DNA from: a virus
Lineage: Duplodnaviria > Heunggongvirae > Uroviricota > Caudoviricetes
Direction: 5' to 3' (one strand)
IMG/VR virus record: IMGVR_UViG_3300005253_000053
DNA: 64,000 nucleotides
The notes beneath the pieces were generated by a model that made no database searches, was not told the DNA's origin, and was given only the letters and a program-made list of their open reading frames with translations. Of this stretch, positions 29,012-60,148 are shown one piece after another (within the stretch, counting starts at the first letter, position 1; the number at the start of each line of letters is the position of its first letter). Made by a program: the position numbers and the translations under genes.

Positions 29012-29449
29012 TTATTGGAGATTCCACGAAACGGCCCACCCGTCGCCCGGTTTGCCTTCTCCGTCGACTTCGTGGTAGCTGGTGGCCGGAATTTCGTCGA
29101 TACTCTCAAACGCGGTCGCGGAGGGCGTCCCAAAGGCCGAGACCAAGGCCCGGTACGACTTTTGAGACGTCACATCCGCTTCGACCGTCTTCACGCCCCA
29201 CTCTTTCAACGACTGGGCTGCTTTTTGGGCCAGGAGCGTACCGTAGCCCCGGCCGCGATGTGCGGGCTTCACAAAAAGGTTGCCCAGGTGGGATTTCGTG
29301 TCGTCGAGAGTCTCAGTCGTCACGTGGCCGACTTCTTCGCCCGCAAGGTAGGCGCGAAGAGTCAGACCGCCCCAGGGAGCCTTCATCACCTGGAAAGTGA
29401 GGCCCCGGGCTTCGTTGAGGACGGTTCGGATGGCGCGTCGGGAATCCAT
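29012..29449 (-). CDS. GNAT acetyltransferase with N-terminal MDxRRAIRxxLxE tag
   Basis: MDSRRAIRTVLNEA... N-terminus, then GNAT motif A HRGRGYGTLL. Confidence 0.65.
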   Translation of the reverse strand: MDSRRAIRTVLNEARGLTFQVMKAPWGGLTLRAYLAGEEVGHVTTETLDDTKSHLGNLFVKPAHRGRGYGTLLAQKAAQSLKEWGVKTVEADVTSQKSYRALVSAFGTPSATAFESIDEIPATSYHEVDGEGKPGDGWAVSWNLQ

Positions 29450-29495
29450 GGCGGAGAGTATACCCGGATCACCAGATCAGGTAAAATAGGTCCCA
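29450..29495 (-). promoter_or_regulatory. class B promoter (GGGTATACT-N7-ATG)
   Basis: mRNA-sense TTTTACCTGATCTGGTGATCCGGGTATACTCTCCGCCATG. Confidence 0.5.
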
Positions 29496-29512
29496 CCGAA
29501 TGGCGTCGTCAG

Positions 29513-29790
29513 TCATTCTTCGTCATGCCCCACAGCCTGGAACTGGCGGTCGCGACAGTACACCCGAACCAAGCTGTCCCTGATAACTTCGCCCGCATGG
29601 TCTGTCCAACGAAAATGGCACTGGGCACACTCCCGAACGGGAATCGACACGATTAACTGCTGTGCGTCCTTACCGGAGCCCTGCTGAAAAATGTCCGGAG
29701 TCCACTCCGTCGAAACTTCAGCACCGAGGCACTGCGGACAATGCAGCATCTCCTCATAATCCGCATTCGATAAATCAACTGGGTTATCCA
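29513..29790 (-). CDS. zinc-ribbon small protein
   Basis: CPQC...CAQC. GTG start with GGAGG 6 nt upstream, overlapping the upstream stop. Confidence 0.4.
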
Positions 29791-30521
29791 CGCTTCCTCC
29801 TCTTCGTCGGCTTGCGACGAAAACTCCACTCGTCGAACCCGCGCTGCTTGATGCGGTCGTCGTTGCCGACCTCGCCCATATCGCGGTCGGCCATGCCAAG
29901 CACGCCGGACAGGTACATGTGGATCTCCTGGCAGGCGGTATACGAGTCCTTGACCTTCATAAAGCCATAGTCTTTGAGTCGCGGATTGAGGATCAGCTTG
30001 CACTTGCTCTTCTTCGATGACCAACCGCTGAACCAGCCCGATAACCCCGCCTTATCTATGTGCAGGAAGCACGGCACGCGGTACCGCACGAACATGGGCA
30101 AGAGGAAGCCCCACGAGTTCAGATCGAAGAAAGTTTTGAAGTCCACGTCGGAAATTCGCCGCCGCCAGGAGAACGCCCGACGGCTGTTGACATGTTCTCG
30201 TTCCTCCGGAAGAATCTCGTCCAAGTAGGCCATCAGCGGTTCCACTGTGTAGAAGAACTGCGTGGGATTATTTTCGATGGTGTCCAGGAGTTGCGTGACC
30301 TGGACATGCGGGTAGATCTCCCCGCAGAACCCCACAACGCGCCATTCGATCACGTAGTTCTTCTGCTTGTGCGAAGAACTGTGCGAGTAGAGCCGCAGGT
30401 GCCGCGCATCATTCAAGGTGACGTTCACCTCGGATTTCTTGCGCTGGTAGACGCACGTCTTGTCGACGCCGTGCGCCAGGGCCGTGTCGTAGTAGTCGTG
30501 GAATTTCGAGATGATCAGCAT
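29784..30521 (-). CDS. hypothetical protein
   Basis: 245 aa, K/Y/F-rich. Confidence 0.5.
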   Translation of the reverse strand: MLIISKFHDYYDTALAHGVDKTCVYQRKKSEVNVTLNDARHLRLYSHSSSHKQKNYVIEWRVVGFCGEIYPHVQVTQLLDTIENNPTQFFYTVEPLMAYLDEILPEEREHVNSRRAFSWRRRISDVDFKTFFDLNSWGFLLPMFVRYRVPCFLHIDKAGLSGWFSGWSSKKSKCKLILNPRLKDYGFMKVKDSYTACQEIHMYLSGVLGMADRDMGEVGNDDRIKQRGFDEWSFRRKPTKRRKRG

Positions 30522-31225
30522 CAGGAGGGTGCGATTTGAAGCACATCCTCGACGCCGCTGCCGTCCTTCTTCTGGCGGCGGGTGACCAGCGCCATAATGG
30601 GCATTCCGAGGGCCTCTTGAACCTCCGCAGCAAACTGACCGCGAGGTCCCTGCATGCCCACAGCAACCGGCCCGAACGGCTCTCCGATCAGCAGGACGGC
30701 CGAGTCATGGATCTTGGTCTTCTGCTCGTCAGTGATCTTCAAATCGTTGTGCACTTCGATCAGCAATCCCGTCGTCTGGTCGCCGGTCACGGGCGGATTG
30801 ACCAGTTCGGGCTCGAACGGAACGAACACGCCGTTGTGCCGGTCTCGGTTGGCCTGCATCTGATCAGCGGTGTATCCGATGATGAAAACACCCTCGACGT
30901 CGTCCATGTAAATGCCGTGCGGGATCACGGCGGTCAGCGGAGTCTTCGATCCGTCGGGAACGCCTTCCGGCCAGATGTAGCCGTACATGAACTCCAGATC
31001 TGGAGGGCATTTTGCGCTCGGCAGCTTGAAGGGACCGACGAAGCCCGGAAGCTGCTGCTCCAGCGGTGGAGCGAATGCGAAGTGCTCGTCGTCCTTGTAC
31101 TTCTCCTGCAAGTCGGCCGCCGTTTGCTCCGGTGTACGGCCCCGGAGACGCTCAATATCTACCCGGCGTTCGTAGACACTATCCGACGAGGAGTACAGGC
31201 GAATGTAAAAAATACCGCGCAGCAT
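30521..31225 (-). CDS. hypothetical protein
   Basis: 234 aa. Confidence 0.5.
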   Translation of the reverse strand: MLRGIFYIRLYSSSDSVYERRVDIERLRGRTPEQTAADLQEKYKDDEHFAFAPPLEQQLPGFVGPFKLPSAKCPPDLEFMYGYIWPEGVPDGSKTPLTAVIPHGIYMDDVEGVFIIGYTADQMQANRDRHNGVFVPFEPELVNPPVTGDQTTGLLIEVHNDLKITDEQKTKIHDSAVLLIGEPFGPVAVGMQGPRGQFAAEVQEALGMPIMALVTRRQKKDGSGVEDVLQIAPS

Positions 31226-31545
31226 CAGAAACGTCTCCCGGTCGGCCTGTCCTCGTTTTTACACGGCAAACGGGAGACCGTGAACGTGTCGATGACCTTC
31301 CCGTCGCGGACGCGGGCGTAGCCCCAGCACTTGGTCGGACCCTCGGCATCGACGCAGGGCCACTCCCAGGTCCAGCACTCGTCCTGGTCGGTGAAAAACA
31401 GTGTGAAGAGGCACCAAACAGGCAGCATGAGCGGGTGCACGGTGTACACCCGGCGCATACGGCCGTTGGTCGCGGCCTCCAGTTTGACCTTAATCCCCAG
31501 GGCCTCGGGAGGAACCACCCCGAACTTTGGTTTCGTGATCTTCAT
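31225..31545 (-). CDS. hypothetical protein with hydrophobic segment
   Basis: Start placed at the class A motif ATG (MKITKPKFG). The track's upstream extension translates the promoter motif (..KSDNIGM). Confidence 0.45.
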   Translation of the reverse strand: MKITKPKFGVVPPEALGIKVKLEAATNGRMRRVYTVHPLMLPVWCLFTLFFTDQDECWTWEWPCVDAEGPTKCWGYARVRDGKVIDTFTVSRLPCKNEDRPTGRRF

Positions 31546-31582
31546 GCCTATATTATCGGATTTGGGAGGCAAAATAGCCAAG
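31543..31582 (-). promoter_or_regulatory. class A promoter motif
   Basis: plus: catgcctatattatcggatttgggaggcaaaatagcc. Confidence 0.55.
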
Positions 31583-31707
31583 TTATTTCAGGCTGGGGCG
31601 ATCAAGTTCGACCCCAGAACTACTAACTTTCCGCAGTTTTATGTCGTAATCCACGCCGGACCTTGTATTTCCCCGCCCAGCCTCGATGACGATTCCGCCG
31701 ACCATTA

Positions 31708-33116: not shown

Positions 33117-33130
33117 CAGGTTCTCCTATT

Positions 33131-36325: not shown

Positions 36326-36640
36326 CTAACACTCCTCCCGGTCGCCAGGAATGTCCAGAATTTCCAGGTCCGGGTCAGGCGTGGCGCACGCTTCGTCAAA
36401 ATCCTTTGCCGCCAGACTCAGCAGCCAGTCCAGAAATGACTCCGCGATGGGGTTTCCCCGAACCGCGTCGAGAATGTCGTACATGACCTCAGTGTGTTCC
36501 GGACCCGTGCGGAACGAGACGACCTTCATGTCGATGCCGAGCTTCCGGCACAGCGCAGCGCCCATGGCAACCATACGTTTGGCTTCGTCACTAGCCACTG
36601 TGTCCTGCCTCCCGTACGTACTTGGCGACGTCGTGCTCAA
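36326..36640 (-). CDS. hypothetical small protein
   Basis: 104 aa. Confidence 0.45.
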   Translation of the reverse strand: MSTTSPSTYGRQDTVASDEAKRMVAMGAALCRKLGIDMKVVSFRTGPEHTEVMYDILDAVRGNPIAESFLDWLLSLAAKDFDEACATPDPDLEILDIPGDREEC

Positions 36641-37613
36641 CCATCATCGCCACCAGATCCTCGAACGAAACGTCCGGTCGCCACTGCAAGACCATACGGG
36701 CCTTGGTCGGATTTGCGTGCAGGACGTGAACTTCCGCCGGGCGGAAGAACTCGGGGTCGATGACGATGTACTTCTCGTAGTCCAGATTGACCACTCCGAA
36801 GGCGGCCTTCACGAAATCTCGAACTGAGTAGGTCTTGCCGGAGCCGACCACGTAGTCGTCAGGCTTCTCCTGCTGGAGCATCAGCCACATGGCCTTCACG
36901 TAGTCTCCGGCAAAGCCCCAGTCGCGCTTGGCGTCGAGATTCCCCAAGTGGAGTTTCTCCGCCTTACCTAGACTAATGGCCGCCGCGCCCCTCGTGATCT
37001 TTCGAGTCACGAACTCCACGCCCCGACGAGGGCTCTCATGGTTGAACAGGATGCCCGAACACGCGAACAGTTTGTAGGCTTGTCGGTACATGCGGGTGAA
37101 CTGGAAGCCTGCCACCTTGCTGATCGCGTAGGGTGATTGGGGATCGAGCGGTGTCTCCTCACTTTGTGGGGCGTCGGTCGAAGCGTTCCCGAACATCTCA
37201 CTCGTGCCTGCAAAGTAGAAACGACAGTCCGGTGCGAGATGCCGCAAAGCCTCCAACAGATGCAATGTGCCGACGGCGTTGATCTGGAACGTATCGAACG
37301 GAGAGTCGAACGACTCCTTGACGAAGCTCTGGGCTCCGAGATGGTAGCACTCGTCCGGCATCACGTTCCGCACCACGTCGAATACGCTGGCGTAGACCTG
37401 CAAATCTCCGCTGTGCAACACCAGATCGTTCGCAATGTGGTGGATGCGACCTGCCCGATCTGCCGGGTCTTCGACAGCCGCTCTCCTGACGAGCCCGTGA
37501 ACTTCGTAGCCCTTCTCCAGCAGAAGCTCAGACAGATACGATCCATCCTGCCCCGTGATTCCAGTAATGAATGCTCTCATGGTCGGCCCCAGCCCCTTCG
37601 GCCATCCGGTCAC
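36591..37613 (-). CDS. gmd: GDP-mannose 4,6-dehydratase
   Basis: MRAFITGITGQDGSYLSELLLEKGYEVHGLVRR..., PYAISK, NHESPRRG, DYVVGSG..SVRDFV, FRPAEV are collinear with E. coli Gmd. The start may be at MRAF (37577). Confidence 0.85.
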   Translation of the reverse strand: MTGWPKGLGPTMRAFITGITGQDGSYLSELLLEKGYEVHGLVRRAAVEDPADRAGRIHHIANDLVLHSGDLQVYASVFDVVRNVMPDECYHLGAQSFVKESFDSPFDTFQINAVGTLHLLEALRHLAPDCRFYFAGTSEMFGNASTDAPQSEETPLDPQSPYAISKVAGFQFTRMYRQAYKLFACSGILFNHESPRRGVEFVTRKITRGAAAISLGKAEKLHLGNLDAKRDWGFAGDYVKAMWLMLQQEKPDDYVVGSGKTYSVRDFVKAAFGVVNLDYEKYIVIDPEFFRPAEVHVLHANPTKARMVLQWRPDVSFEDLVAMMVEHDVAKYVREAGHSG

Positions 37614-39749: not shown

Positions 39750-40142
39750 TCAGCGCAACCTGCGCCCGGTGCCGCCACGGTCCAGTTCTCCCCAGGGGAA
39801 GTACCAGATCTCGAAGTCGTCCGGGAGGTGCTCCGCCAGCCGCTTCGCGACGTGATTTGCCTTCCGGGCGGCCATACGCTGCTCGAAAGCCCACGGCGTG
39901 AGGCTGGCCATGCGCTTCGTAACGTCGATGCGCCCGGCAAACTGCGGGGGTCCTTCCATGCCAACGTCGAGGTGGTAGGTGTCCGGATCGACACCTTCCT
40001 GGCTGGCGAAGCTGAACTGACCATCTGACCACTTCCAGGCGTCGAAGTCCTTGGAGCCGCTGCGGTAGTGGCCGATGTCGGTGTAGTGCTGAGGAGCGGC
40101 CTCGCAGAGCAGCTTACGGATGACTTGGCGGGTGGAGTCCAT
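39750..40142 (-). CDS. MDxTRxAIRxxLxE-tagged protein (candidate packaged internal protein)
   Basis: MDSTRQVIRKLLCEA... The C-terminal module (EGVDP..H....F.GR.D....AARKA..V.KRL...P....WYF) is shared with 40142..41107. Confidence 0.6.
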   Translation of the reverse strand: MDSTRQVIRKLLCEAAPQHYTDIGHYRSGSKDFDAWKWSDGQFSFASQEGVDPDTYHLDVGMEGPPQFAGRIDVTKRMASLTPWAFEQRMAARKANHVAKRLAEHLPDDFEIWYFPWGELDRGGTGRRLR

Positions 40143-41107
40143 CAGTACATTCTCTGCCCAGGCCTGCCGCGTTGCTGCCCGCTGAAGTACCAGACCGCCT
40201 CGACCTCGGGGAACCGGTCGACGAGCCGCTTCACGACGACCTTCGCTTTCCGTGCAGCGATGGGATTGTCGAGCAGGTCCCAGGCCGTGATGCTGGCCTC
40301 GCGCCGCTGAGGGTCGTAGCGTCCGCCGAAGTCAGGAGCGCCCTGAGTGTCGTAAATCAGGTTGTGGAACTTGTTCGGATCGACGCCTTCATCGCTGGCA
40401 ACGCGCAGCCGACCTTCGTCCCAGATCCACGCGTCGGTACCTTCGCCGTGGCCGACGGTGAGGTAGTTGGCGGGGGCTTCGTCCAGGACCGCCTCGGCCC
40501 GGACCAGGGATTTGTCCTGGATCTCGTAGCCCTCAACGGCACCGACGTTCGCATAGTCGAAGCCTTGCAGGACCGCAACTTTCTGTTCGGCGAACCGACC
40601 GTGGACGATGTAGTAGGCAGCCTGCCCAACGACCTCGGTGAACAGCGCAGGCCGGGCTTCCACGGTAGCCAGCTTGGCGTGCGTGTTGTACGCGGCGAGT
40701 TCCCCACGGAGTGTGAACGGCTGACCGCGGGCGATGTGCGTGAAGTAATCGTGGACGGTCCGGAATAGCAGATTGTCCTCGACGCTGAAGACCGGGTGCT
40801 CAGAATCTCCGCTGTAGATTTTTAGAACGCCTGTCTCGCGGAAGTCCCGCTGCATTTCTTCAGACGACTCGTACGGGTCCTCGTCCGTGTACTCGACACG
40901 GGACCGGCCCAGGAACCGGCGAAACAGAATTTTGTTGCTGCTGTTGAGCGCCTCCCAGTGGCGGGCCGCGTCCGGGTCGTAACTGGGAGCCTCCTCGTAG
41001 GCGTCAGCGACGAGCCGCGCGTACTCGTTAAAATCTTTAAGTTCGAGCTTCTCGCGCACGTCCGCTTCGAGAAGCAGCTTCCGGATGGCTGTGCGGGTAG
41101 CGTCCAT
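40142..41107 (-). CDS. MDxTRxAIRxxLxE-tagged protein, 321 aa
   Basis: MDATRTAIRKLLLEA... Its C-terminal ~70 aa are paralogous to 39750..40142. ATGA-coupled. Confidence 0.6.
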   Translation of the reverse strand: MDATRTAIRKLLLEADVREKLELKDFNEYARLVADAYEEAPSYDPDAARHWEALNSSNKILFRRFLGRSRVEYTDEDPYESSEEMQRDFRETGVLKIYSGDSEHPVFSVEDNLLFRTVHDYFTHIARGQPFTLRGELAAYNTHAKLATVEARPALFTEVVGQAAYYIVHGRFAEQKVAVLQGFDYANVGAVEGYEIQDKSLVRAEAVLDEAPANYLTVGHGEGTDAWIWDEGRLRVASDEGVDPNKFHNLIYDTQGAPDFGGRYDPQRREASITAWDLLDNPIAARKAKVVVKRLVDRFPEVEAVWYFSGQQRGRPGQRMY

Positions 41108-41481
41108 CAGATCTTCACGTCCTTCCGCAACGAAATGTGGACACCGGGGTTGATCTCGTCCAGCTTCAACCTGAGCTTGATGACCTCGACCTGATGCGGC
41201 CTGAGATTACGATCCCGCGCGGCGTAGAACGCGGCGTCCTTCGGGCTGTCAGCAACATACGTACCTGCCCGCAGAACGTCGTAATCACTGCGCTTCGGAC
41301 GACCGTGATACAGTTCGACGGTCCCATCGAGCAGGATCGGGATGCCGTGGCGCTCCAGGTACTCGCCTACGGTTTCCTTGCCGAGAACCGGGTGGTCGAG
41401 CCAGACGCGGTTCAGACCCCCCTCGTCGTCGGCATCAGCCTCGTAGAGGATCTTCCGGATGGCTTGGCGGGTGGCGTCCAT
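41107..41481 (-). CDS. MDxTRxAIRxxLxE-tagged protein, 124 aa
   Basis: MDATRQAIRKILYEA... Confidence 0.6.
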   Translation of the reverse strand: MDATRQAIRKILYEADADDEGGLNRVWLDHPVLGKETVGEYLERHGIPILLDGTVELYHGRPKRSDYDVLRAGTYVADSPKDAAFYAARDRNLRPHQVEVIKLRLKLDEINPGVHISLRKDVKI

Positions 41482-41957
41482 CAGCGGCCCTCGATCTTGT
41501 CCGCGACGTTCACCATCTGCGAGAGCATGTTCCGGTAGCCGCCGCCGTGTTCGATGTTGGGGACGTCCGCGCTGTGAACCGCATCGATCTCGGTCTCACC
41601 GCGCTGAAGCGCCTCAATCGCCCGGTGGTGACCGTCCAGTATGAACCAGGCAGCGCGCTTTTCGAGCTTGCTGACCAGGAGCGGACTCTTAGCAGCATGG
41701 TAGGATAACTCCCCTTTCTCGATTTCACTGAAGGTTTTATCAATCTTCGGTTCCCAGGCGTACAGGCTGCGCAGCCGGACGCGCCAGGGTTTTCCCTTGA
41801 TCGCGGCCTCAGCCAACAGACGCTTCACAAGATCGGGTGGGTAGCCCCGGTCAGAGCAGCCAGGAGGGGGTGCGGAGATCGAGCCGTCGCCGACCTGTTG
41901 GAAGACGCCGCGACCCTCGTTGAGGATGGAGCGAATGGCTTTGCGGGTGGGGTCCAT
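41481..41957 (-). CDS. MDxTRxAIRxxLxE-tagged ParB-like nuclease domain protein
   Basis: MDPTRKAIRSILNEG... plus AAWFILDGHHRAIEAL (ParB/Srx DGHHR motif). Confidence 0.65.
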   Translation of the reverse strand: MDPTRKAIRSILNEGRGVFQQVGDGSISAPPPGCSDRGYPPDLVKRLLAEAAIKGKPWRVRLRSLYAWEPKIDKTFSEIEKGELSYHAAKSPLLVSKLEKRAAWFILDGHHRAIEALQRGETEIDAVHSADVPNIEHGGGYRNMLSQMVNVADKIEGR

Positions 41958-42026: not shown

Positions 42027-42464
42027 TCAGTCTTCCTTGCCACCGCATACGAGGGCGTTGTAGGTCAGCGCCACAGTCAGCAGGTTGTTGTGCTCGTAGG
42101 ACAGCTTGGGGATCTCCAGCGACCGGAGGGTCATCTGCGGCTCGCCGTCGATGTAGAGCATCCATCGGCCGGTGCGCACCGGCTCCCAGTCCGGGGAGTC
42201 CGGGCTGGTCTCGATGAGGTCGTTGCCGTCCCGGTCGAGGAACTTCAGCACCATCTCGGGGACACGGCTCAGCAGGATCTGCCGGAACGAGACGGGCACC
42301 TCGAAGGCGACCCCCTCGTCGCGCATGTACTGGAGGACTTTCTCAGTGGCCTCTTCACCGATCCGGTCAGCGAGGTTCTGCGCCCACGGGTGGTCCATGG
42401 TCATCAGGTCGTAGGGCGCAGCGTCGAGGATCTGGAAGACGTTGCTGGGCTTCGGGAAGGGCAT
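42027..42464 (-). CDS. hypothetical protein
   Basis: 145 aa. Confidence 0.5.
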   Translation of the reverse strand: MPFPKPSNVFQILDAAPYDLMTMDHPWAQNLADRIGEEATEKVLQYMRDEGVAFEVPVSFRQILLSRVPEMVLKFLDRDGNDLIETSPDSPDWEPVRTGRWMLYIDGEPQMTLRSLEIPKLSYEHNNLLTVALTYNALVCGGKED

Positions 42465-42530
42465 GGCAGGTCTCCTGGTAGGTGGCAGATAGTATACCCG
42501 ACCACCGGACAGGAGGCCAACAGTCAGATA

Positions 42531-46650: not shown

Positions 46651-48564
46651 TTATCCGGCAGCGTTTAACCGCTCAACCGCCTTGGAGAACGCAAGAACAC
46701 GTAAGTAGGTAGTGTCTCTCACTTTTCCTGAAATCGCCTCGATGATCTTTTTTGCAGTACACTCGGCGATCCTGGCCCCTCTGGACAGTTCCTTCACAGA
46801 GTATCCCGCACACAGCGAGCGCATCACATGCGTGTCGACGAACACGGGAAGGTCCTCCCAGTGCCGGAGGCATACCTGCATCAGCATCCGCTTAAACAAA
46901 TCCTTTTCCACACTGACCTGGGCACGCGCTATGCCGGAGACAAGCGCGCTGCCCTTCCGAGCCCTAGGTTGCCGTGGGCGATTTACCTTCGGACGCTTGA
47001 CCACGCGAGTCCTCGCCTCTTTCAAGGCCTCGGCCGCTTGCGTGATCTGATCAGCCCAGTGCTGCCGAACCCGACGGCCGGGCTTGTCCAAGTCGTAGAG
47101 GTACTCGTAAATGGTGTACCGTTTCATCCCGGTCACTTCCGCTACAACGCTGGCGGCCATCCCTCGAATCAGTGGCGCAATCTCCGAGAGCAGCACCGAC
47201 CGTATAGGATTACAACGCAGTTGTACTTCCCGAGCCACCTTCGCTGCACAAGCACCCACGCAGTACCGGGACCGCCAGTTGAGCGGGAGGTCCGCCTTGC
47301 AGACGCAACACGCACGATAAGCCAGGGGCAGGTCTGGGCGAACGGTACCAAAAGCTGCCTGACTCACACGAACAATTCCCACGCTGACCTCGGCCACAAC
47401 CTTTTGCTGCGTCTGCCCGGCGGCGTAGCGTTCGCGGATATCGCGGATGAGATCGTCATCGTCGAACCAATCCGGCTTTGGCTCTCGCAGCAACGCCTGT
47501 AACCGATACCGCTCCTTCTGCTTGGCTTCTACGAATTTCTCCAAACATTTCGTAGAACAATAAACCCAGCGACTGGGCGGCAAAGGAGACTTCCCACACT
47601 GCTTACATACGGTGCCAACCTGACTTTCCTTCCGCTCCTTCTTTAGCTCCCTCGACCGCCGAACCCCAGCGACCGCGCGCACCTGGGCGTGTCCCGCCGC
47701 GACACACTCACCCGTACAGTACTTGATGTACTTTCTTGGTCTTCCGAATCGGACGTAGAAGCGGTTGCATTTCGCACACCGTGGAGCGACCCGACCGCGA
47801 CGCGTTCGCTGCTTCTTGCTTGGTGTAACCGGTTTATTGCCTATGAGGAAGTTTGCCGCATCTGCCTGCATTCCGTCGTAAGCGACGTCCAGCGCGGCTT
47901 TGCGAAGACGCACGCGCATAGCCTTCTGCCCACAGCCCCTACGCTGCGTCGAGCTTGGGCAGAACAGGGGCAGCTTGCCACCCTTCGGCGGTCGGCGAGC
48001 TTTGAATGTTTTTTCACAGTGCGCACAGACGATACTGATTGCACGAAGCGGGATCAGGGGAAGGTGCTTGTACGTCTTTCCAACCGCGACAGCGTATACC
48101 GATGCCGAGCAGACATCGAACTCCTCGGCCAGGGAATAGGATGTCTGACCATCCGCCCAACGATCCCGGACTTCCATTACCTCGGCGTCGCTAAACAGTC
48201 CTCTACTGCCCCGACGACTCCGCCCTCTCGGGATAGTCCTTGCCCGGACGTCGTTTTCTATGGCACGCGCCTTACGGATTGCATACTTGGACGCGGCCTC
48301 ACCGATCTGAGGGTACAGCGCCCGGTAGCTCCGCTTCTTAACGACGTCTTTGCAGGCGTCGTCACAGTACTGCTGATTGTAATTCTCGGCGTAAAAAGGC
48401 CCCTCGCAGGCGTTACACTCTCGGGCAGTGTCCCAGGCCCAGGTCTTACCCCGCAAAATATTACCGACGCAGGACTTATCTACGCTGTACGTCTTCGCAA
48501 TACGTGCCCGGCTCCACCCCTGCCGGGCGCGCTTCCGAATCAGATCCGCCCGGCGGCGAGTCAT
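46651..48564 (-). CDS. multi-HTH / multi-zinc-finger DNA-binding protein
   Basis: Three repeats of R(W/Y)A.GQT...(I/V)A......V....V (HTH-like). More than six CxxC pairs. Start set at MTRRRADLIRK (ATGA-coupled). Confidence 0.5.
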   Translation of the reverse strand: MTRRRADLIRKRARQGWSRARIAKTYSVDKSCVGNILRGKTWAWDTARECNACEGPFYAENYNQQYCDDACKDVVKKRSYRALYPQIGEAASKYAIRKARAIENDVRARTIPRGRSRRGSRGLFSDAEVMEVRDRWADGQTSYSLAEEFDVCSASVYAVAVGKTYKHLPLIPLRAISIVCAHCEKTFKARRPPKGGKLPLFCPSSTQRRGCGQKAMRVRLRKAALDVAYDGMQADAANFLIGNKPVTPSKKQRTRRGRVAPRCAKCNRFYVRFGRPRKYIKYCTGECVAAGHAQVRAVAGVRRSRELKKERKESQVGTVCKQCGKSPLPPSRWVYCSTKCLEKFVEAKQKERYRLQALLREPKPDWFDDDDLIRDIRERYAAGQTQQKVVAEVSVGIVRVSQAAFGTVRPDLPLAYRACCVCKADLPLNWRSRYCVGACAAKVAREVQLRCNPIRSVLLSEIAPLIRGMAASVVAEVTGMKRYTIYEYLYDLDKPGRRVRQHWADQITQAAEALKEARTRVVKRPKVNRPRQPRARKGSALVSGIARAQVSVEKDLFKRMLMQVCLRHWEDLPVFVDTHVMRSLCAGYSVKELSRGARIAECTAKKIIEAISGKVRDTTYLRVLAFSKAVERLNAAG

Positions 48565-49202
48565 CTTTTGCGTTTTTTGCTTGCCTTGGTGCGCAATAGC
48601 TGTTGGATCTTCTTGATCACGGTGCCCCGAGTGACGCGGTACCGCGTTCCGGTCGACATAATGGCCCATACGACGCCCTTGTCATCCAGTTCCGCGTCCG
48701 CGACGAACGGGACGGTCTTGCGGGTCCGGTTGAGCGGCAGCTTCGGCCTAGTGAACCCGAGCGCATCCGACAGAGGACGCGGGTCGGCGATCTCCAGGGC
48801 TTTGTCGATGGCCTTGTCGATCTTGACCCGGGTGATGCCGCCCTGGTTCTGCTTGACCCGCAGCATGTTCAGGTAGCTCGCACCGATCCCGCGCATCATG
48901 GCCACCTTGAGCGACTTGTCGGGCAGGTTCCCCCGGCCGACTTCGAGCATCACCTTGAGGTGCTCCAGGCTGCGGAACAGGACGCCGTGCTCGACGAGGC
49001 AGCGGTCCGTGAACTTGACGAACTCCTCGGGGGGCAGCTTATCAGACACTTCGACCATGATGTACGAGACCTCCAGAAGGAAGTCGGACTCGGCCTCCCC
49101 GTACTGGTCGATGATGCGCATCGCGGCGGCTGCGGACTTGACTGCGCGGATCTCCTTCATCGTGGTGTAGGACAGCTTGCGGCGCGTTTTAACTTTGGGC
49201 AC
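48561..49202 (-). CDS. hypothetical basic protein
   Basis: 213 aa. Confidence 0.5.
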   Translation of the reverse strand: MPKVKTRRKLSYTTMKEIRAVKSAAAAMRIIDQYGEAESDFLLEVSYIMVEVSDKLPPEEFVKFTDRCLVEHGVLFRSLEHLKVMLEVGRGNLPDKSLKVAMMRGIGASYLNMLRVKQNQGGITRVKIDKAIDKALEIADPRPLSDALGFTRPKLPLNRTRKTVPFVADAELDDKGVVWAIMSTGTRYRVTRGTVIKKIQQLLRTKASKKRKR

Positions 49203-51487: not shown

Positions 51488-51823
51488 TTAGTTGCCCCTC
51501 GTACGCGGCTGCCGCGTCTCGGGGTCCATCTCGTACGTCATCACTTCGTTGCAGAAAGTAATCGTCCCGCCGCCAGACAGTTTGCCGTCCCACACCTTGC
51601 CCCACGTCTCGTCTTCCCGCGAGCCAGTGATTGTGACACGGAACCCTACGTGTTCGCCTTCAGCGAGAACCCATGATGCCCCCGTCCAGTCTACACCTTC
51701 CGCCGGTTCCGCAACCCGCTGTCCCAGCGGATAACACAGCACCGTCTTGTTGCTAGGCATGGGAGTCTCGTCTTCAGGAGCCTCAGTGAGGAGGTGTCGG
51801 AGAGCTTTGCGGGTCTGATCCAT
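51488..51823 (-). CDS. MDxTRxAIRxxLxE-tagged protein, 111 aa
   Basis: MDQTRKALRHLLTEA... The track ORF extends upstream through the promoter. Confidence 0.6.
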   Translation of the reverse strand: MDQTRKALRHLLTEAPEDETPMPSNKTVLCYPLGQRVAEPAEGVDWTGASWVLAEGEHVGFRVTITGSREDETWGKVWDGKLSGGGTITFCNEVMTYEMDPETRQPRTRGN

Positions 51824-51885
51824 GGGCAGCAGTATACCTGGATATTCGAGGATTGCGAAATTGAAACGGGCAAAAATTTTGTGTG
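51824..51885 (-). promoter_or_regulatory. class B promoter (GGTATACT-N7-ATG) with upstream AAAATTTT element
   Basis: mRNA-sense CACACAAAATTTTTGCCCGTTTCAATTTCGCAATCCTCGAATATCCAGGTATACTGCTGCCCATG. Confidence 0.5.
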
Positions 51886-51887: not shown

Positions 51888-52376
51888 TCAGGTCTGTAGG
51901 TCCAGGCGCAGGAAGATGGCTTCGTAATTCTCCCGGGACTCGCGATGCGTCTCCACAAAGCCAAAACGCTCGTACAAGTGGTGGGCCGCCCGCTCGTCGT
52001 CGAGATCAGACGTAAACAGCTTGAGGCACTCGTAGCCCTCATCCTTGGCCCGCTGAATCGTGAAGCGCAGCAAATCGGTCCCCAGGCCCTGCTTCCGGTG
52101 GTCGGGATGAACGCAGAACCAACCGACCCAGATCGCCTCGGGCGTAGGAATCTCGTTGTAGAAGCCAGTAACCCCAGTGACCACACCGTTTTCAATAGCA
52201 ACCCAGTAGCGAATGTCGGAGCACTCGTGGGCTTCCATGAAATCGGTGTGGGACCCAGGACGGGTGGCCTCCTCAAAGCAGCGCTTGATGGATTCCTGGT
52301 CATCGTCCTTGAACACCTGCTGCGTCAACAGCATGGCCTGATCGGCGAACTCAGCGGTGAGCGGCAAGGGCTTCAC
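51888..52376 (-). CDS. GNAT acetyltransferase
   Basis: VHPDHRKQGLGTDLL (motif A). Start placed at the class A motif GTG. Confidence 0.6.
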   Translation of the reverse strand: MKPLPLTAEFADQAMLLTQQVFKDDDQESIKRCFEEATRPGSHTDFMEAHECSDIRYWVAIENGVVTGVTGFYNEIPTPEAIWVGWFCVHPDHRKQGLGTDLLRFTIQRAKDEGYECLKLFTSDLDDERAAHHLYERFGFVETHRESRENYEAIFLRLDLQT

Positions 52377-52410
52377 AACAGTATTATTGGATCGGAAGGC
52401 CTGTTTACCC
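52374..52410 (-). promoter_or_regulatory. class A promoter motif (GTG variant)
   Basis: plus: cacaacagtattattggatcggaaggcctgtttaccc. Confidence 0.45.
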
Positions 52411-52917
52411 AAGGAAATCCGACTCGGGAAACCTCTTCGCGCGTCGCATGAGAGCCTCAGGCGTCATCCGGGGGTGCATCAGGTCGGTGACATCGACCTT
52501 GATGGCCTCCCGCTGATCCCAGACGTCGAGGTAGACCGTGTCGCCCAGCGTCAGGCCGGGCAGCAGGACGCGCAGGCGATTCAGAACCTCGGAGTCGAGC
52601 GTGGGCACCGTAATCCCGTCGTCGTAGCCGCGAATCCAGCCGTGTTCTAGCGCTTCGGCCTCAACCCGTTGGCGGTCGTGGGGATCGTCGGAAACCGTGC
52701 TCACCTCGTCCAGCAACTCCTCGATGCCCGGGTCGCCAGGGTACATCTCAGGAAAGCGCCTCAAGGCCTCAGCGGCGTGCGTCGTCCAGCCACTCCCAGT
52801 CCAGCCACTCCCAATGTTGATGTACTCGCCGTCGGGCAGGAGCCACCAGCGGCCCAGCCATGTGGACTCGCGGGCCTCGGTGAGGATGGAACGGATGGCG
52901 TGACGGGTGGAATCCAT
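52405..52917 (-). CDS. MDxTRxAIRxxLxE-tagged protein, paralog of 52917..53441
   Basis: MDSTRHAIRSILTEA... WWLLPDGEYINIGSGW and HGWIRGYDDG blocks shared with the neighbour. Confidence 0.6.
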   Translation of the reverse strand: MDSTRHAIRSILTEARESTWLGRWWLLPDGEYINIGSGWTGSGWTTHAAEALRRFPEMYPGDPGIEELLDEVSTVSDDPHDRQRVEAEALEHGWIRGYDDGITVPTLDSEVLNRLRVLLPGLTLGDTVYLDVWDQREAIKVDVTDLMHPRMTPEALMRRAKRFPESDFLG

Positions 52918-53441
52918 TAGGCCTGCCGCGTGACTTGGGCAGGATGCTTTGCCAGCAGAACCGTCTCCACATCGGCGTACATGTACCCACTGCCATATTC
53001 GAGCAGGATTTTGCCCTTCGTGGCACCCCGGTCGAGCAGGAACGTCTGTATACGCCTCAGCGACTCAGCATCGAACTCCAGCATGTCGAAGCCGCCGGTA
53101 TCGGTTACACGAATCCAGCCATCCCGGATCGCCACCTGCTCAGGGTTGTTCATGTAGCGCGCGACGAAGTCAGGCTTCTTGGCGTACTCCCGAGCAATAT
53201 CGGCGTGGACGTCGTACCAGGGGCCGTCGAAGGTCTCGTCCATGATGTCCTGCTCAGAGGCCGACAGGAACCCCCAGTCGATCTCAGCAGCGACGGCCAG
53301 AGCAGCCGCCTCGTGATTCCAGCCACTGTCTTCAACAGTCACAACCTCGCCATCAGGCAGAATCCAGTAATCAGCACGGAGCACGTCGGCAGCATCGGAC
53401 TCAGTGAGCAGCTTTCGGATGGCGTGACGGGTCTGATCCAT
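52917..53441 (-). CDS. MDxTRxAIRxxLxE-tagged protein, paralog of 52405..52917
   Basis: MDQTRHAIRKLLTES... YWILPDGEVVTVEDSGW, DGWIRVTDTG. Confidence 0.6.
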   Translation of the reverse strand: MDQTRHAIRKLLTESDAADVLRADYWILPDGEVVTVEDSGWNHEAAALAVAAEIDWGFLSASEQDIMDETFDGPWYDVHADIAREYAKKPDFVARYMNNPEQVAIRDGWIRVTDTGGFDMLEFDAESLRRIQTFLLDRGATKGKILLEYGSGYMYADVETVLLAKHPAQVTRQA

Positions 53442-53505
53442 GGCGAAAACATCATATCAGGGAATCCGGGGATCTCGAAATTGAAACGGCCCAAAATTTT
53501 GTGTG
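53442..53505 (-). promoter_or_regulatory. class B promoter variant (TATGAT-N9-ATG) with AAAATTTT element
   Basis: mRNA-sense GAACACACAAAATTTTGGGCCGTTTCAATTTCGAGATCCCCGGATTCCCTGATATGATGTTTTCGCCATG. Confidence 0.45.
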
Positions 53506-54041: not shown

Positions 54042-54076
54042 TAACAGTATTATCGGCCTGCGAGGGCAATTTGGGC
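54039..54076 (-). promoter_or_regulatory. class A promoter motif
   Basis: plus: cataacagtattatcggcctgcgagggcaatttgggc. Confidence 0.5.
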
Positions 54077-55476: not shown

Positions 55477-56004
55477 ATGGAAGAGCAGTGGAGGGTTATC
55501 CCCAGCGTCCCGTACTACGAGATCAGCGACCATGGTAGGGTTAGACGACTGGTGCCAGCTATTGGTACCTGGGTTGGCAGGGTCAAGACACCCTACGTCA
55601 CAGCCAACGGCTACCTGAAGATCTCGTTGTCCGTGGACAAGAAGAGGTTCCAGCGCTTCGTCCACAGGTTGGTGGCAGAGGCGTTCATCGGTCCGATCCC
55701 AGACCTGCACCACGTCCATCACCTGGACCACGACAAGCAGAACAACCGGGCCACGAACCTGGAATGCCTGTCCCGCCGCCAGAACCAGCAGCTTACCCAC
55801 ACCACGCCGGTCAAGCGCAGCGCCATGGGCGGCATCCCTGAGATGCTGGTCCAGGCCTGGGCCAGGGGCTGGATGTTATGCGACGTGGCCGCTCAGCTTG
55901 AAGTGGACGAGGCACAGCTTAGCCGCTGGCTGCTACGGGAGGAGCTACCCAACGGTCGGCAGGCTGAGATCAGCCAGCGCCTGTGGTCGCTCGTGATAGG
56001 CTAG
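55477..56004 (+). CDS. HNH homing-endonuclease-like protein (NUMOD4-type N-terminus)
   Basis: WRVIPSVPYYEISDHGRVRRL (NUMOD4-like), HRLVAEAFIGPIPDLHHVHHLDHDKQNN (HNH). Confidence 0.75.
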   Translation: MEEQWRVIPSVPYYEISDHGRVRRLVPAIGTWVGRVKTPYVTANGYLKISLSVDKKRFQRFVHRLVAEAFIGPIPDLHHVHHLDHDKQNNRATNLECLSRRQNQQLTHTTPVKRSAMGGIPEMLVQAWARGWMLCDVAAQLEVDEAQLSRWLLREELPNGRQAEISQRLWSLVIG

Positions 56005-57499: not shown

Positions 57500-57600
57500 T
57501 ATCTTCTGTCTATGTGTAGGCTATCACTACACTTAGTTGTGTAACACGTTACATTGCTACATATAGCATGCTACATCCTTCTCACCTGCCCGATCCCCAG
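57500..57600. repeat. AT-richer noncoding segment with direct and inverted GCTACAT / TGTGTA repeats
   Basis: tgtgtaggctatcactacacttagttgtgtaacacgttacattgctacatatagcatgctacatcc lies in a 770-bp intergenic gap between divergent genes. Confidence 0.4.
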
Positions 57601-57984
57601 GTCGCTGCACCGTGACCACCCGACATCTGTGTCCGCCGGTGGCGGCTGGTGACTCTGTAACCCGTTGGCCTCATTGACCTCACTCATTGTTGCACTTTTG
57701 TTGCAGTCTTATTTCAATGGGCTGCCGGTAGCCGCTGTCCAAGTTGAGCCGCTGTCTGGACTGGGGGCGCTGGGCTGTCCACATCTTGGACTGCCAGCTT
57801 ATCCACATACTGTCAACATGACCATGTCGTTATGGCGCAGTGACACACCTAACGCATCCCAATCCAGTTCAATTTGGAGCCTATTATTTACATTGAGCCG
57901 TTGTTGTTGCAGTTATTTACAGTTACTGCGTTGAGGGCACCGGCCGCACGGCGGCCCGGCCCATGGGAGGGTGGGAGGATTTAC

Positions 57985-59019
57985 ATGACCAAAAAGCCGT
58001 CCGAATCCGATAATACCTGTATGACCACCGCAGCGACCACCGACGTAGACACGCTCTTCAACCGGTTCGCCAAGATGGCCTCGGACACGTTCAAGCCCAC
58101 CGGCCTGTACCCGGACAGTGCAGTGCTGTCGATGCTTCAGCGGGCTGAGGTGTTCTGCTTCCCCTCCATGCTCACCGCTGAAGAGAGGCCCGAAAGCGCC
58201 ACGATCCTGAAGACTCGCCTGCCCCATAAGGCCTGTGCTATGGTCTCCCCTCGGGCAGTCACAGTGTTCGGTGGTCAAACCTTACACCACGGTCGCCAAG
58301 GCATCGATATCGATACAATCGAGAACCTGGACTCAGCGTGGGGTGCTAGGCTCAAGCGAATCGCTGACAGTACGCAAACAGATCTCAACACGAGTCTCGA
58401 CAGCGTAAAGCTCTGGACAGGGTTCGACTCTGTCGTCATGTACTACCCGGGCGAGAAGACGAGTGGCGACCTGTTGGCCTACGGGTGGGCGTTGCTGGTT
58501 GAGGACGACACCAGTGGTGGTGCAACGAGGATAATCATGCCGCCAAAAGTGGTGATCATGCGTACCGGCAGGAAGCCCGAGCTACTGGTGAGCGACAGGC
58601 AGGACCACGGGATGTCTCATCAGGACGTTAAACTCGTGATAGAGAGCATGGAGCGCCACGCCATGATCGGTATGGGAGAGGTGGCTGTAGCCTCCGCTCC
58701 AATCAGTCGTGTCGTCCTGCGGGAACGTCCTGTCAAGAAGCCCAAGCGTCCTAGCCGGTACATCGGCCGGGTGGGCGAGAAGCCGAGGACCATCCTCATC
58801 GATCCCAGTAACCGTGAGTCCATTCAATACGTTGGTTTGGGTGGGCATCGTGGTCCGCTGCTCGAAGGCCACAAGCGCCGTGGCCACCACCGGACTTACC
58901 GGTCTGAGCGCTATAAGAAGATGCGGGGCAAAACCGCCTGGGTAAAGCCGACGTGGATCGGACCCCGAAACTGGACGGACCATGGACGCGTCTACATCGT
59001 ACAGGTAGTAGGAGGATGA
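57985..59019 (+). CDS. hypothetical protein
   Basis: Start set at MTKKPSESD (GGGAGGA 5 nt upstream), 344 aa. Confidence 0.5.
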   Translation: MTKKPSESDNTCMTTAATTDVDTLFNRFAKMASDTFKPTGLYPDSAVLSMLQRAEVFCFPSMLTAEERPESATILKTRLPHKACAMVSPRAVTVFGGQTLHHGRQGIDIDTIENLDSAWGARLKRIADSTQTDLNTSLDSVKLWTGFDSVVMYYPGEKTSGDLLAYGWALLVEDDTSGGATRIIMPPKVVIMRTGRKPELLVSDRQDHGMSHQDVKLVIESMERHAMIGMGEVAVASAPISRVVLRERPVKKPKRPSRYIGRVGEKPRTILIDPSNRESIQYVGLGGHRGPLLEGHKRRGHHRTYRSERYKKMRGKTAWVKPTWIGPRNWTDHGRVYIVQVVGG

Positions 59020-59023
59020 CAAC

Positions 59024-59326
59024 GTGACTGAGATCAACTGGCGTAGTGCCGACGAGCACATGATTGCTGATGTGGATGACGTGAAGCTGACCGCCTACAA
59101 CCCTATCAACCAGTCTGCCTGGAACGTGGTGGCCAAGCGCCCCGCGTTCGAGGTCGACTACGATGATGTGAAGCGGCAGAGGATTCAGGAAGTCGAAGTC
59201 ACGATGAAGGTCGTTGCTCAGGGTGCCGACACCGAGTCCCTGAACAGTGTGGGGCAGCGGGCTCTGGATGCTCTGGAAGGGATGCGCCGCCGTCTGGAGA
59301 CCGATGTTACTACGGTAGGCGTGTGA
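59024..59326 (+). CDS. hypothetical small protein
   Basis: GTG start with GGAGGA 8 nt upstream, 100 aa. Confidence 0.45.
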   Translation: MTEINWRSADEHMIADVDDVKLTAYNPINQSAWNVVAKRPAFEVDYDDVKRQRIQEVEVTMKVVAQGADTESLNSVGQRALDALEGMRRRLETDVTTVGV

Positions 59327-59342
59327 GGGTCAGAGGCGGGTA

Positions 59343-59756
59343 CTACCGGCCAGTAACTACGTAGCGGCTCTTGAGTTCGTCCCCGTCAACACTGGGATGG
59401 CTGTAGTAGACGCCTCCCTCGGAGGTGTACAGATCCACGTCGAGGGTACTGGTGAACTGGTCTACCGTAGGATCTAGGATGTGACTGCCGACGATCACCC
59501 ATGTGTGGTCCCACTCCTCAAGCTCCTCGAATCCGGGCCGGTCTCCTGTGACTGTGATGAACTGGCCGCCTTGGATCTTTGCCTGGATTCCTTTGGCGCG
59601 GAGAAGTTTGACGAGTCCCTCGGCGGTCTCGCTGCAATCCCCGAACTGGGCAACGTCGCACACGAACTGCTTACGGGCCTGCTTGGCAAGATCAATGGTG
59701 GCGTCCGTGATCGACTCAGTGAGCATCCTGCGTATGACTGTTCTGGTGGAGTCCAT
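59343..59756 (-). CDS. MDxTRxAIRxxLxE-tagged protein, 137 aa
   Basis: MDSTRTVIRRMLTES... ATGA-coupled to the upstream family member. Confidence 0.55.
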   Translation of the reverse strand: MDSTRTVIRRMLTESITDATIDLAKQARKQFVCDVAQFGDCSETAEGLVKLLRAKGIQAKIQGGQFITVTGDRPGFEELEEWDHTWVIVGSHILDPTVDQFTSTLDVDLYTSEGGVYYSHPSVDGDELKSRYVVTGR

Positions 59757-60148
59757 CACATGGCTCTCAACTTCTCAATGAACTCTACGACTTCCAGGTC
59801 TGCGAATTCCCTGTCCTGAAGCCACTCGTACGTGTCGCAGGGGACCTCGTAAGCCATAATGGACCGCGCACCCGACATCATTCTGGCAATCAGCCTGTGG
59901 TGTCCGTCCAGGAGTTTGCCGCACGCGATCCAGATCGGCGGAATGTCTTTGGCCTGCCGGAGCGCCGCGATCTTCTCCGGGTCCTGGTGTAGCTCGTAGG
60001 TCAGTATCTGCCTTGGGTCCTCTTCAACCAATTCGGCGGTCAGGTCGATCCCGGCTGCGCGGGCTTCGTCAACGACCTCCCGTTCCCAGTCCTTGAGAGG
60101 GTCGGCCTCGGTGAGCATCCTGCGTATGGCTGTTCTGGTTGGGTCCAC
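59756..60148 (-). CDS. MDxTRxAIRxxLxE-tagged ParB-like nuclease domain protein
   Basis: (GTG)DPTRTAIRRMLTEA... plus ACGKLLDGHHRLIARM (DGHHR). Leaderless GTG 7 nt after TATACT. Confidence 0.6.
   Translation of the reverse strand: MDPTRTAIRRMLTEADPLKDWEREVVDEARAAGIDLTAELVEEDPRQILTYELHQDPEKIAALRQAKDIPPIWIACGKLLDGHHRLIARMMSGARSIMAYEVPCDTYEWLQDREFADLEVVEFIEKLRAM

Follow-up and report, generated by a model that had tools for sequence, protein, structure and literature searches.

Proteins that a phage injects together with its DNA act ahead of any phage gene expression and are its earliest means of countering restriction and other defences of the host. Such proteins are very hard to recognise from sequence and, with the exception of T4, P1 and a few giant phages, are to our knowledge known only from virion proteomics. 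In T4, the internal proteins IPII and IPIII begin with MKTYQEFIAE↓A (the arrow marks the cut), whereas IPI has a 19-aa peptide ending in ITE↓A. Mutagenesis of the T4 capsid-targeting sequence (CTS) placed targeting in its N-terminal part and processing at P3 and P1 (PMC9026906), and the diverse internal proteins of the T-even phages have only the CTS in common (PMC3012670). T4 gp21 and related proteases cleave behind Glu, the residue at P3 differing between lineages (L/I in T4, A/S/G in phiKZ and SPN3US); in SPN3US, gp53 and gp54 have identical 15-residue N-termini, likened by the authors to a CTS, and a gp21-like protease cuts after Glu (PMC5694885). In phage P1, an N-terminal segment of DarB is enough to direct a protein, or a reporter, to the capsid, from which it is delivered (PMC9024508), while for the so-called polyvalent proteins processing has been proposed to rely on an intrinsic metallopeptidase and not on the prohead protease (PMC5512222). 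Here we describe a stretch of 64 kb (IMG/VR record IMGVR_UViG_3300005253_000053; 'the window' throughout, meaning the whole stretch analysed) from an uncultured tailed phage, in which ten genes start with one 14-residue peptide, M-D-x-T-R-x-(A/V)-(I/L)-R-x-h-L-x-E (h, hydrophobic), referred to below as the tag. As argued from the sequence, the tag is probably a capsid-targeting propeptide.

A 14-residue tag shared by at least sixteen genes

The original prediction, made from the letters of the window, listed ten minus-strand open reading frames (ORFs) with near-identical N-termini, and it had every coordinate and every peptide right. All ten start with MDxTRx(A/V)(I/L)Rxx-L-x-E-(A/S/G). Tagged gene 1 (29012..29449, 145 aa) bears MDSRRAIRTVLNE↓A at 29411-29449, a tag one residue shorter than the others (MD-SRRAIR) that scores 25 bits with a local tag hidden Markov model (HMM). 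Next come gene 2 (39750..40142, 130 aa; MDSTRQVIRKLLCE↓A at 40101-40142), gene 3 (40142..41107, 321 aa; MDATRTAIRKLLLE↓A at 41066-41107), gene 4 (41107..41481, 124 aa; MDATRQAIRKILYE↓A at 41440-41481) and gene 5 (41481..41957, 158 aa; MDPTRKAIRSILNE↓G at 41916-41957). Gene 6 (51488..51823, 111 aa) has MDQTRKALRHLLTE↓A at 51782-51823, gene 7 (52405..52917, 170 aa) has MDSTRHAIRSILTE↓A at 52876-52917, and gene 8 (52917..53441, 174 aa) has MDQTRHAIRKLLTE↓S at 53400-53441. The last two are gene 9 (59343..59756, 137 aa; MDSTRTVIRRMLTE↓S at 59715-59756) and gene 10 (59756..60148, 130 aa, with a GTG start; (V)DPTRTAIRRMLTE↓A at 60107-60148).

There are exactly ten tags within the window. A six-frame search for D..R...R..L.E matched solely at the ten ORF starts; the local HMM scored the ten tags at 25-36 bits and the next best window match, in any frame, at 8 bits; and a degenerate tag-DNA pattern gave 8 window matches as against 0 in 100 dinucleotide-preserving shuffles. 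The coding signature GC1 > GC2 << GC3 is found in all ten ORFs of this 60% GC genome. Two starts deserve comment. The mechanical ORF of 51488..51823 runs on to 52303, and the start was placed at 51823 because the tag, a promoter-like motif and the coding signal all point there. The gene at 59756..60148 starts with GTG at 60148 (130 aa), whereas its public gene call begins at Met11, 10 codons later (120 aa), and cuts the tag in half; automated annotation will therefore under-count such tags.

The original prediction spoke of at least ten tagged genes, a figure that holds for the window and falls short for the genome. A hypothetical protein of the LCGC14 marine sediment metagenome (a 224,854-bp contig from Loki's Castle sediment) has exactly the sequence of the 321-aa tagged protein, and exact-protein look-ups recovered the flanks of the window, so that about 104 kb of the 224,854-bp contig were covered. 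Some 15-25 kb past the right window edge lie six consecutive tagged genes in one operon, encoding proteins of 152, 608, 558, 207, 330 and 143 aa, which brings the total to at least 16 tagged genes in at least five transcription units across about 55 kb. The first ~9 kb past the right window edge and the tail-gene region to the left hold no tag. Relatives are represented by short contigs of other samples: in L005 (Logan ERR10503156) three tagged genes lie side by side, and L009 (Logan ERR10503159) has a 498-aa ORF, P0112, with one N-terminal and two internal tags.

Across 15 aligned copies the consensus is M-D-x-T-R-x-(A/V)-(I/L/M)-R-x-(I/L/M/V)-L-(T/N/..)-E-(A/S/G/Q), in which D2, R5, R9, L12 and E14 are invariant. 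With its 14 residues, the tag has a net charge of 0 to +2 and a mean hydrophobicity of -0.1 to -0.6, and it usually ends in L-(T/N)-E-(A/S/G). It matched no family in Pfam or PHROG, and its charged residues at positions 2, 5, 9 and 14 and lack of a hydrophobic stretch, as read from the sequences, are not those of a Sec or Tat signal peptide. An exhaustive HMMER search of 1.84 billion representative proteins returned 9 matches at E up to 0.001, seven of them from this phage or close relatives and the other two (P0116 and P0117) repeat-protein artefacts. The tag DNA pattern found no match in IMG/VR viral contigs at the stringency of the pattern; its single match in a JGI metagenome was discarded as an out-of-frame chance match within a larger gene. 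No match came from a word-indexed search of 5.8 billion proteins with the tag profile, a query too short and weak for that index, and 5 kb of the window matched none of 50,697 phage records by megablast. Occurrence on non-phage proteins, correspondence to a known domain and use as a secretion signal, each of which would have spoken against a phage-specific targeting peptide, were thus looked for and none was found.

Head proteins with the same candidate cleavage motif

A T4-type structural module occupies the left third of the window, with sheath and baseplate genes further left. The major capsid protein (5128..6633, minus strand, 501 aa; its start agrees with the public gene call) belongs to the gp23 family (Pfam Gp23, 6.5e-43) and shares no more than 30% identity with its counterpart in any cultured phage. 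Its candidate processing sites are PLNE↓A near the N-terminus and, by alignment, LLE↓N and MDE↓A to either side of the point that corresponds to the LTE↓A cut of T4 gp23, in keeping with the earlier suggestion of a gp23-like capsid that has candidate protease sites near its own N-terminus. An L(N/T)E(S/A/G) site is kept in the N-terminal region of most 75-95% identical capsid relatives, and (L/M)LEN and (M/L)(D/N)E(A/V/T), which flank the position of the T4 gp23 LTE↓AEIGG cut, are invariant in all 30 capsid relatives compared.

One protein combines the prohead protease with an acidic scaffold-like region (6811..9417, minus strand, 868 aa), a fusion also seen in the relative L015 (894 aa); in T4, protease and scaffold are separate genes. 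The gp21/S77-like domain spans aa ~1-200, matches phrog_207 (head maturation protease) at 6.8e-20 and, aligned to T4 gp21, conserves the catalytic His85 (EHP) and Ser140 (GASSR); the enzyme is apparently active. The remaining ~650 residues are acidic and of low complexity, with runs of D/E/G and a basic RRRRRRGR patch. Four (I/L/M)-(N/T)-E-(A/G) sites lie in the fusion protein, one of which, AVREAINE↓AQEA, ends the protease domain and resembles the A-I-R-x-x-L-x-E-A of the tag. A third head-module protein (12182..14872, minus strand, 896 aa), for which no family or PDB match was found, has one SMTE↓AE site, and its orthologue in the relative has NLTE↓GS.

How specific is this motif to head proteins? 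We counted (I/L/M)(N/T)E(A/G/S) in all predicted window proteins, with the tags and one Met1 set aside. With P2 limited to N/T, a choice taken from the tags and not from the head proteins but picked after seeing the data, it occurs 6 times in the 2,298 aa of the three head proteins as against 0 times in 16,137 aa of other proteins (Fisher p=3.7e-6). The six are the PLNE↓A of the capsid N-terminal region, the four of the protease-scaffold fusion and the one of the 896-aa protein; tail-region proteins have 1 site in 2,784 aa. In L015, whose capsid protein is 77% identical, 4 of 5 sites fall in the capsid protein (MELTE↓S), the protease-scaffold fusion (two) and the orthologue of the 896-aa protein, the fifth being in a glycosyltransferase and none in tail genes. 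The proposal that the tag ends, as L-x-E followed by A/S/G, in a gp21-type candidate cleavage motif is supported, if circumstantially: L12 and E14 are invariant, and the motif is otherwise a feature of head proteins.

Putative cargo bodies and internal tags

Behind the tag the proteins diverge. BLASTP among the 16 tagged bodies found only 3 homologous pairs, and 8 of the 10 window genes encode a single body module; multi-module proteins are the 321-aa protein, the 608- and 558-aa proteins outside the window, and P0112. The GNAT acetyltransferase body foreseen by the original prediction is that of tagged gene 1 (Pfam Acetyltransf_1, 1.3e-11), which has an orthologue in P0113. The two 'ParB-like DGHHR nucleases' are the products of genes 5 and 10, where the DGHHR motif is present and the best PDB profile matches are all to the ParB/Srx fold, albeit at E values of only 0.06-1.8, so that the label has weaker backing than the prediction implied. 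Together with the 143-aa protein (NGRHR) and the middle of the 608-aa protein (phrog_1033, 1.6e-5; Pfam ParB_N, 2.2e-4), they make up a ParB/Srx-like set whose PDB profile matches are to SbnI, sulfiredoxin and ParB. The gene 5 protein, which has an orthologue in P0115 and recurs as one module of P0112, carries another site that resembles the tag, LVKRLLAE↓A, around aa 40-48. Genes 7 (orthologue P0119) and 8 (orthologue P0114) have paralogous bodies (BLASTP E 7e-4); the body of gene 4 is without Pfam or PHROG match, and no family was assigned to the bodies of genes 6 and 9.

The body of gene 3 consists of a phrog_3170 domain (aa ~27-200) and a C-terminal module (aa ~225-320) that makes up the body of gene 2 on its own (E 2e-22 between the 130-aa protein and the C-terminus of the 321-aa protein), as anticipated. 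This module recurs in the 130-, 321-, 608- and 558-aa proteins and in P0022, at 39750-40142, the C-terminal third of 40142-41107, the C-terminal ~150 aa of L010 6489-8315 and 8320-9996, and the C-terminus of L005 506-1735. Its pattern is GHG...W.W..G... followed by (G/K)G(R/H)(Y/F)(D/E)...S; within each of the pairs 130/321 and 608/558 the likeness has BLAST support, the two pairs having been linked to each other by eye only, and the AlphaFold2 fold of the module (pLDDT 72-85) has no significant PDB match. The phrog_3170 domain is also found in gp205 of Rhodococcus phage E3, annotated as 'structural protein'; in P0077 it is joined to a SAM lyase. In L009, modules of the ADP-ribosyltransferase (ART)-PolyVal type carry the tag (4.6e-5 and 8.5e-6, below the cut-off), while the tagged proteins of the window give no detectable ART signal. 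A 'YHG...SP' pattern seen by eye had suggested that the 124-aa protein of the window, along with those of 152 and 558 aa, might be ADP-ribosyltransferases; the idea was dropped, since neither Pfam (E up to 10) nor phmmer and jackhmmer comparisons with the ART modules of the relative supported it. No MuF, zincin-like peptidase or helicase-methylase modules were detected among the bodies.

In P0112 the order is tag-ART-PolyVal-like-tag-ParB-like-tag-GNAT-like, each tag standing ahead of one module, and single internal tag-like copies lie at module boundaries in the 608-aa protein, the 558-aa protein and P0022. Since the tags inside fused ORFs are fully conserved, their function needs neither a start codon nor a free N-terminus, which fits a processing site. 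Could the tag then be a mere processing site or inter-domain linker left from an ancestral polyprotein (a 'polyvalent protein'), with incorporation into the head directed otherwise, for instance by the C-terminal module? The exact placement of the internal copies at module boundaries in all four proteins speaks for this, as does the presence of the C-terminal module in at least four tagged proteins and in the P0022 of a relative, and a T4-type cut requires just the equivalents of L12 and E14 (PMC9026906). Such a site, however, needs 3-4 residues, yet the N-terminal part of the tag (D2, Thr4, R5, I8 and R9) is equally conserved over 16 copies, and it is the N-terminal part of the T4 CTS that does the targeting (PMC9026906). 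Moreover, the tagged proteins mostly consist of one module, with no neighbour to be severed from, and the majority do not have the C-terminal module. We hold this explanation to be improbable.

Geometry of the tag

AlphaFold2, run on the 321-aa protein with a 71-sequence alignment, predicts a helix at residues 2-14 (pLDDT about 74) followed by residues 14-18 at below 50; beyond the tag come a confident domain at 27-200, a second linker and the C-terminal module. The tag helix is amphipathic, with muH values of 0.42-0.72. In this model the presumed scissile bond is placed at the end of the helix beside a flexible linker, as would be needed for a processing site.

An amphipathic, mildly basic helix joined to its body through a flexible linker would also suit an uncleaved docking element for some common non-capsid partner, be it a phage hub, a chaperone, a host machine or a compartment. 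Tagged genes stand amid non-structural genes, and at least one of their operons has a sigma-70-like promoter, both of which accord with such a role. It would nevertheless leave unexplained the constant L-x-E-(A/S/G) ending as well as the confinement of the motif, in two phages, to the capsid propeptide region, the protease-scaffold fusion and one head protein; furthermore, the analysis turned up no hub that could serve as partner, and a protein annotated as a structural component of the virion contains one of the body domains. We therefore consider docking to a non-capsid partner an unlikely purpose.

Peptide or nucleic acid?

The original prediction held that the first ~45 nt of the tagged genes are conserved as DNA too. 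There is some excess likeness, but it is partial: mean identity of the tag DNA is 68%, and the same residue is encoded by the same codon in only 49% of cases over all pairs. Synonymous codons at D2, R9 and E14 are mixed as in genome-wide usage, and Arg5 may be CGC, CGT, CGA or AGA; the excess likeness comes from ACC at Thr4 and CTC at L12, the codons of Thr4, R5 and L12 being less varied than genome usage predicts. Identity is highest between adjacent tags (84% for 59756 versus 60148 and for 40142 versus 41481), which fits duplication or gene conversion among neighbours. Because synonymous sites vary freely and internal copies are kept far from start codons, selection is judged to act on the tag peptide and not on its DNA.

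The tagged genes lie at 29-60 kb amid small genes of unknown function, in an unusual setting for expression. Those that come first in their unit have GGTATACT or GATATGAT 7-9 nt ahead of the start codon and no Shine-Dalgarno site, whereas the remaining ones overlap the upstream stop codon by one base (TGATG). All on the minus strand, GGTATACT lies at 29457..29464, 51831..51838 and 60156..60163, in each case 7 nt upstream of the start of a tagged gene (1, 6 and 10, respectively), and at 60156..60163 it is -10-like, with no -35 element, in a leaderless arrangement. Gene 8 is first behind GATATGAT (53451..53458, 9 nt upstream of its start), and the 40 nt upstream of this motif are common to the promoter region at 51838. 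A further GGTATACT at 42491..42498 is upstream of an untagged 145-aa gene (42027-42464) that leads the operon holding tagged genes 5, 4, 3 and 2, joined by 1-nt TGATG overlaps. An untagged GNAT gene (51888..52412, minus strand; Pfam Acetyltransf_1, 4.4e-18; N-terminus MGKQAFRS) likewise lies within a tagged operon. Since these two untagged genes share operons with tagged ones, the tag is a property of individual genes and not of the operon. The GGTATACT motif of the tagged units, which has no -35 element, is distinct both from the sigma-70-like class described below and from the Shine-Dalgarno-bearing head genes.

A second, highly conserved promoter-like class, aaATTttcCTTGnCnAAATAGCCnCCC..ATCCGATAAT with an ATG 6 nt later, is sigma-70-like (TTGnCn-N17-GATAAT) and was seen at 54055, 51427, 46621, 38242, 33467, 32397, 31558 and 24894 on the minus strand and at 58008 on the plus strand. 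As it puts the start codon at or beside the predicted transcription start, many genes of this phage appear leaderless. Its translation in the wrong frame yields recurring 'SDNIGM'-like peptides in ORF lists.

With start codons so placed, it is legitimate to ask whether the element acts as nucleic acid, that is, as a translation signal of leaderless or coupled genes, a translational-repressor site or a recombination hotspot for cassette shuffling, the peptide being incidental. The -10-like motif 7-9 nt from first-in-operon starts that have no Shine-Dalgarno site, the 1-nt overlap of the others with the upstream stop, the restricted codons of Thr4, R5 and L12 and the 84% likeness of adjacent tags could all be read in this way. 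Against it stand the free synonymous sites at D2, R9 and E14, the mere 49% of identical residues that share codons, the full conservation of tags deep inside long ORFs, the other leaderless genes of the phage that have no tag, and the untagged genes within the same operons. An incidental peptide is thus very hard to believe in; recombination at tags may well occur, as a consequence rather than as their function.

A model for packaging and delivery

Taken as a capsid-targeting propeptide, the tag would work as follows. The amphipathic helix (residues 2-14) would dock each cargo protein onto the core of the assembling prohead, probably onto the acidic scaffold part of the protease-scaffold fusion. 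After closure of the shell, the gp21-like protease would cut behind Glu14, with Leu12 at P3, the same (L/I/M)-x-E motif serving the processing of the capsid protein and the scaffold. Roles would be split as in the T4 CTS, with D2, Thr4, R5 and R9 for targeting and L12 and E14 for processing. The mature cargo would be retained inside the head until it passes into the host along with the DNA; the injected set would comprise GNAT and ParB/Srx-like domains, the phrog_3170 domain and several unknown folds, plus ART-PolyVal modules in relatives, for which we infer a role in anti-defence or host takeover. Cutting at every tag would also make fusion and fission at tag boundaries neutral, which would explain the internal copies and link this system to polyvalent proteins.

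Every computational test able to contradict this capsid-targeting and prohead-protease scheme, already put forward in the original prediction, favoured it, the support being circumstantial. Several observations nevertheless weigh against it. We infer packaging, cleavage and ejection of the tagged proteins from the genes of an uncultured phage, and the tag is without sequence similarity to the T4 CTS. The protease scores 21.8 bits with Pfam Peptidase_S77, below the curated cut-off of 27 bits, and the looser motif (I/L/M)xE(A/G/S) is just 2.4-fold enriched in head proteins (p=0.005). Unlike head genes, the tagged genes sit amid non-structural genes and are without Shine-Dalgarno sites; the six-gene operon outside the window is preceded by a sigma-70-like promoter, TTGACT-N18-TAAGAT, which suggests early rather than late expression. 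Finally, 6 of the 10 window bodies are without a family or fold match, and effector roles find weak support for most bodies.

Neighbouring genes and further observations

Several sugar-related genes accompany the structural block: a family-2 glycosyltransferase (10211-11398, minus strand, 6.8e-23) between the 896-aa head protein and the protease, in the same position as in L015, and a WbqC-like protein (17135-17827, minus strand, 2.6e-43) within the block. A GDP-mannose 4,6-dehydratase gene is found at 36591-37613 (minus strand, 1e-120). Glycosylation of the virion or of the DNA is a possible use of such sugar-modification genes. PDB sequence searches with the 684- and 489-aa proteins of the structural region gave nothing informative. 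On the opposite strand, between tagged operons, lies an HNH_3/NUMOD4 homing-endonuclease-like gene (55477-56004, plus strand, 4e-18), and a 672-aa protein (46651-48669, minus strand) has several weak HNH/HTH endonuclease PHROG matches and many CxxC pairs. To the right, between the window and the second tagged operon, are a NUDIX hydrolase gene and a NAMPT/NAPRTase gene, an NAD+ salvage pair (L010 15933-16862 and 14579-15961), near which an OMP decarboxylase gene and a gene of the T4_Y13H family were noted.

A like architecture with a different tag was noticed in an unrelated uncultured marine phage, on the AT-rich contig L003 (JGI Ga0497141_002391) between 8805 and 18294; the 185-kb contig L004 has the same genes. 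In L003, the genes at 10001, 11055, 14003, 16249, 16978 and perhaps 17454 start with MKLLLE(N/T)W..(F/Y)(I/L)NE ahead of unrelated bodies; those at 8805 and 17959 start with M(K/R)(L/I)TKxxL(I/K)K(I/V)IKEE(L/I). Dozens of phrog_3170-body homologues elsewhere start with MKLLLENWRxFINE↓K. An N-terminus of the MKLLLENWR type found no match by tblastn against cultured phages, and literature searches with such motif strings returned only irrelevant matches.

Comparison with known systems

That the tag family was undescribed, as the original prediction supposed, is true of the family itself and of its scale, and no description of it was found in the searchable literature; a conserved CTS on diverse internal proteins was, by contrast, already known (PMC3012670, PMC9026906). 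Novel features are the tag family as such and its size of at least 16 genes, together with a cargo of enzyme domains, tags that recur inside fused ORFs, and the occurrence in a distant, uncultured jumbo phage of the gp23 type. Beyond this phage, homologues of the phrog_3170 body in other uncultured phages have different short N-terminal peptides that also end in (L/I)xE, which suggests that lineage-specific tags of this kind are common. We would go further only tentatively, and propose as one possibility that N-terminal 'address labels' ending in a prohead-protease site are a general device of gp23/gp21-type phages, each lineage with its own, to mark the whole repertoire of effectors that are packaged in the head and injected. 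If that is true, injected anti-defence arsenals could be catalogued from metagenomes by tag-finding. A tag recognisable in silico and tied to the motif of the phage's own protease would make the injected repertoire readable from the genome; here, at least 16 candidates, mostly of unknown folds, are nominated in an uncultured 225-kb phage. Like the T4 CTS, the 14-residue peptide might also serve to load foreign proteins into capsids.

The closest likeness is to the CTS of T4 IPI, IPII and IPIII (and Alt) that is removed by gp21. Here as there, a short N-terminal peptide ending in hydrophobic-x-Glu before Ala stands on unrelated bodies, a gp23-type capsid is combined with a gp21-type protease, scaffold and capsid bear the same motif, and the cargo includes proteins of a counter-defence type (PMC3012670, PMC9026906, PMC5694885). 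The 10-aa IAE peptide with which the original prediction credited all three internal proteins applies, in fact, to IPII and IPIII, not to IPI. It is acidic (MKTYQEFIAE), whereas MDxTRxAIRxxLxE has 14 residues and is mildly basic, and only the h-x-E-A ending is common to the two; judged from the sequences, the tag is an analogue and not a homologue of the T4 CTS. Other differences are the number of tagged genes (3-4 in T4, at least 16 here), the nature of the cargo (small basic proteins in T4, mostly enzyme-like domains here: GNAT, ParB-like and, in relatives, ART), the internal tags in fused ORFs and the fusion of protease to scaffold.

The polymorphic internal-protein loci of the T-even phages offer a second parallel, since there, too, diverse genes keep a conserved leader. 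These loci hold diverse, fast-exchanged genes in which the CTS alone is kept, a pattern interpreted as an arms race between phage and host restriction (Repoila et al. 1994, as cited in PMC3012670 and PMC9026906). They are, however, single small loci of close T4 relatives, whereas the tagged genes belong to a distant lineage, form at least five units spread across some 55 kb and show fusion and fission where the tags lie. The P1 DarB signal resembles the tag as an N-terminal packaging signal on anti-restriction cargo, but is about 30 residues long, occurs on one protein, has no demonstrated protease-site ending and belongs to another capsid lineage (PMC9024508). Propeptides of phiKZ and SPN3US end in (A/S/G)-x-E and mostly exceed 100 residues, with the shared N-terminus confined to two paralogues (PMC5694885), whereas the tag has 14 aa and always Leu at P3.

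Polyvalent proteins, lastly, are likewise predicted to be packaged in the head and injected as arrays of effector domains, among them ART-PolyVal and ParB-like modules (Iyer et al. 2017, PMC5512222). They gather 2-15 effector domains in one polypeptide, whereas the modules described here are mostly separate genes, each with its own tag ('unbundled'), and fusion and fission at tag boundaries suggest a route by which polyvalent and single-domain cargo could be converted into one another. On this reading, the system of the window would be, effectively, a polyvalent protein split into individually addressed modules.

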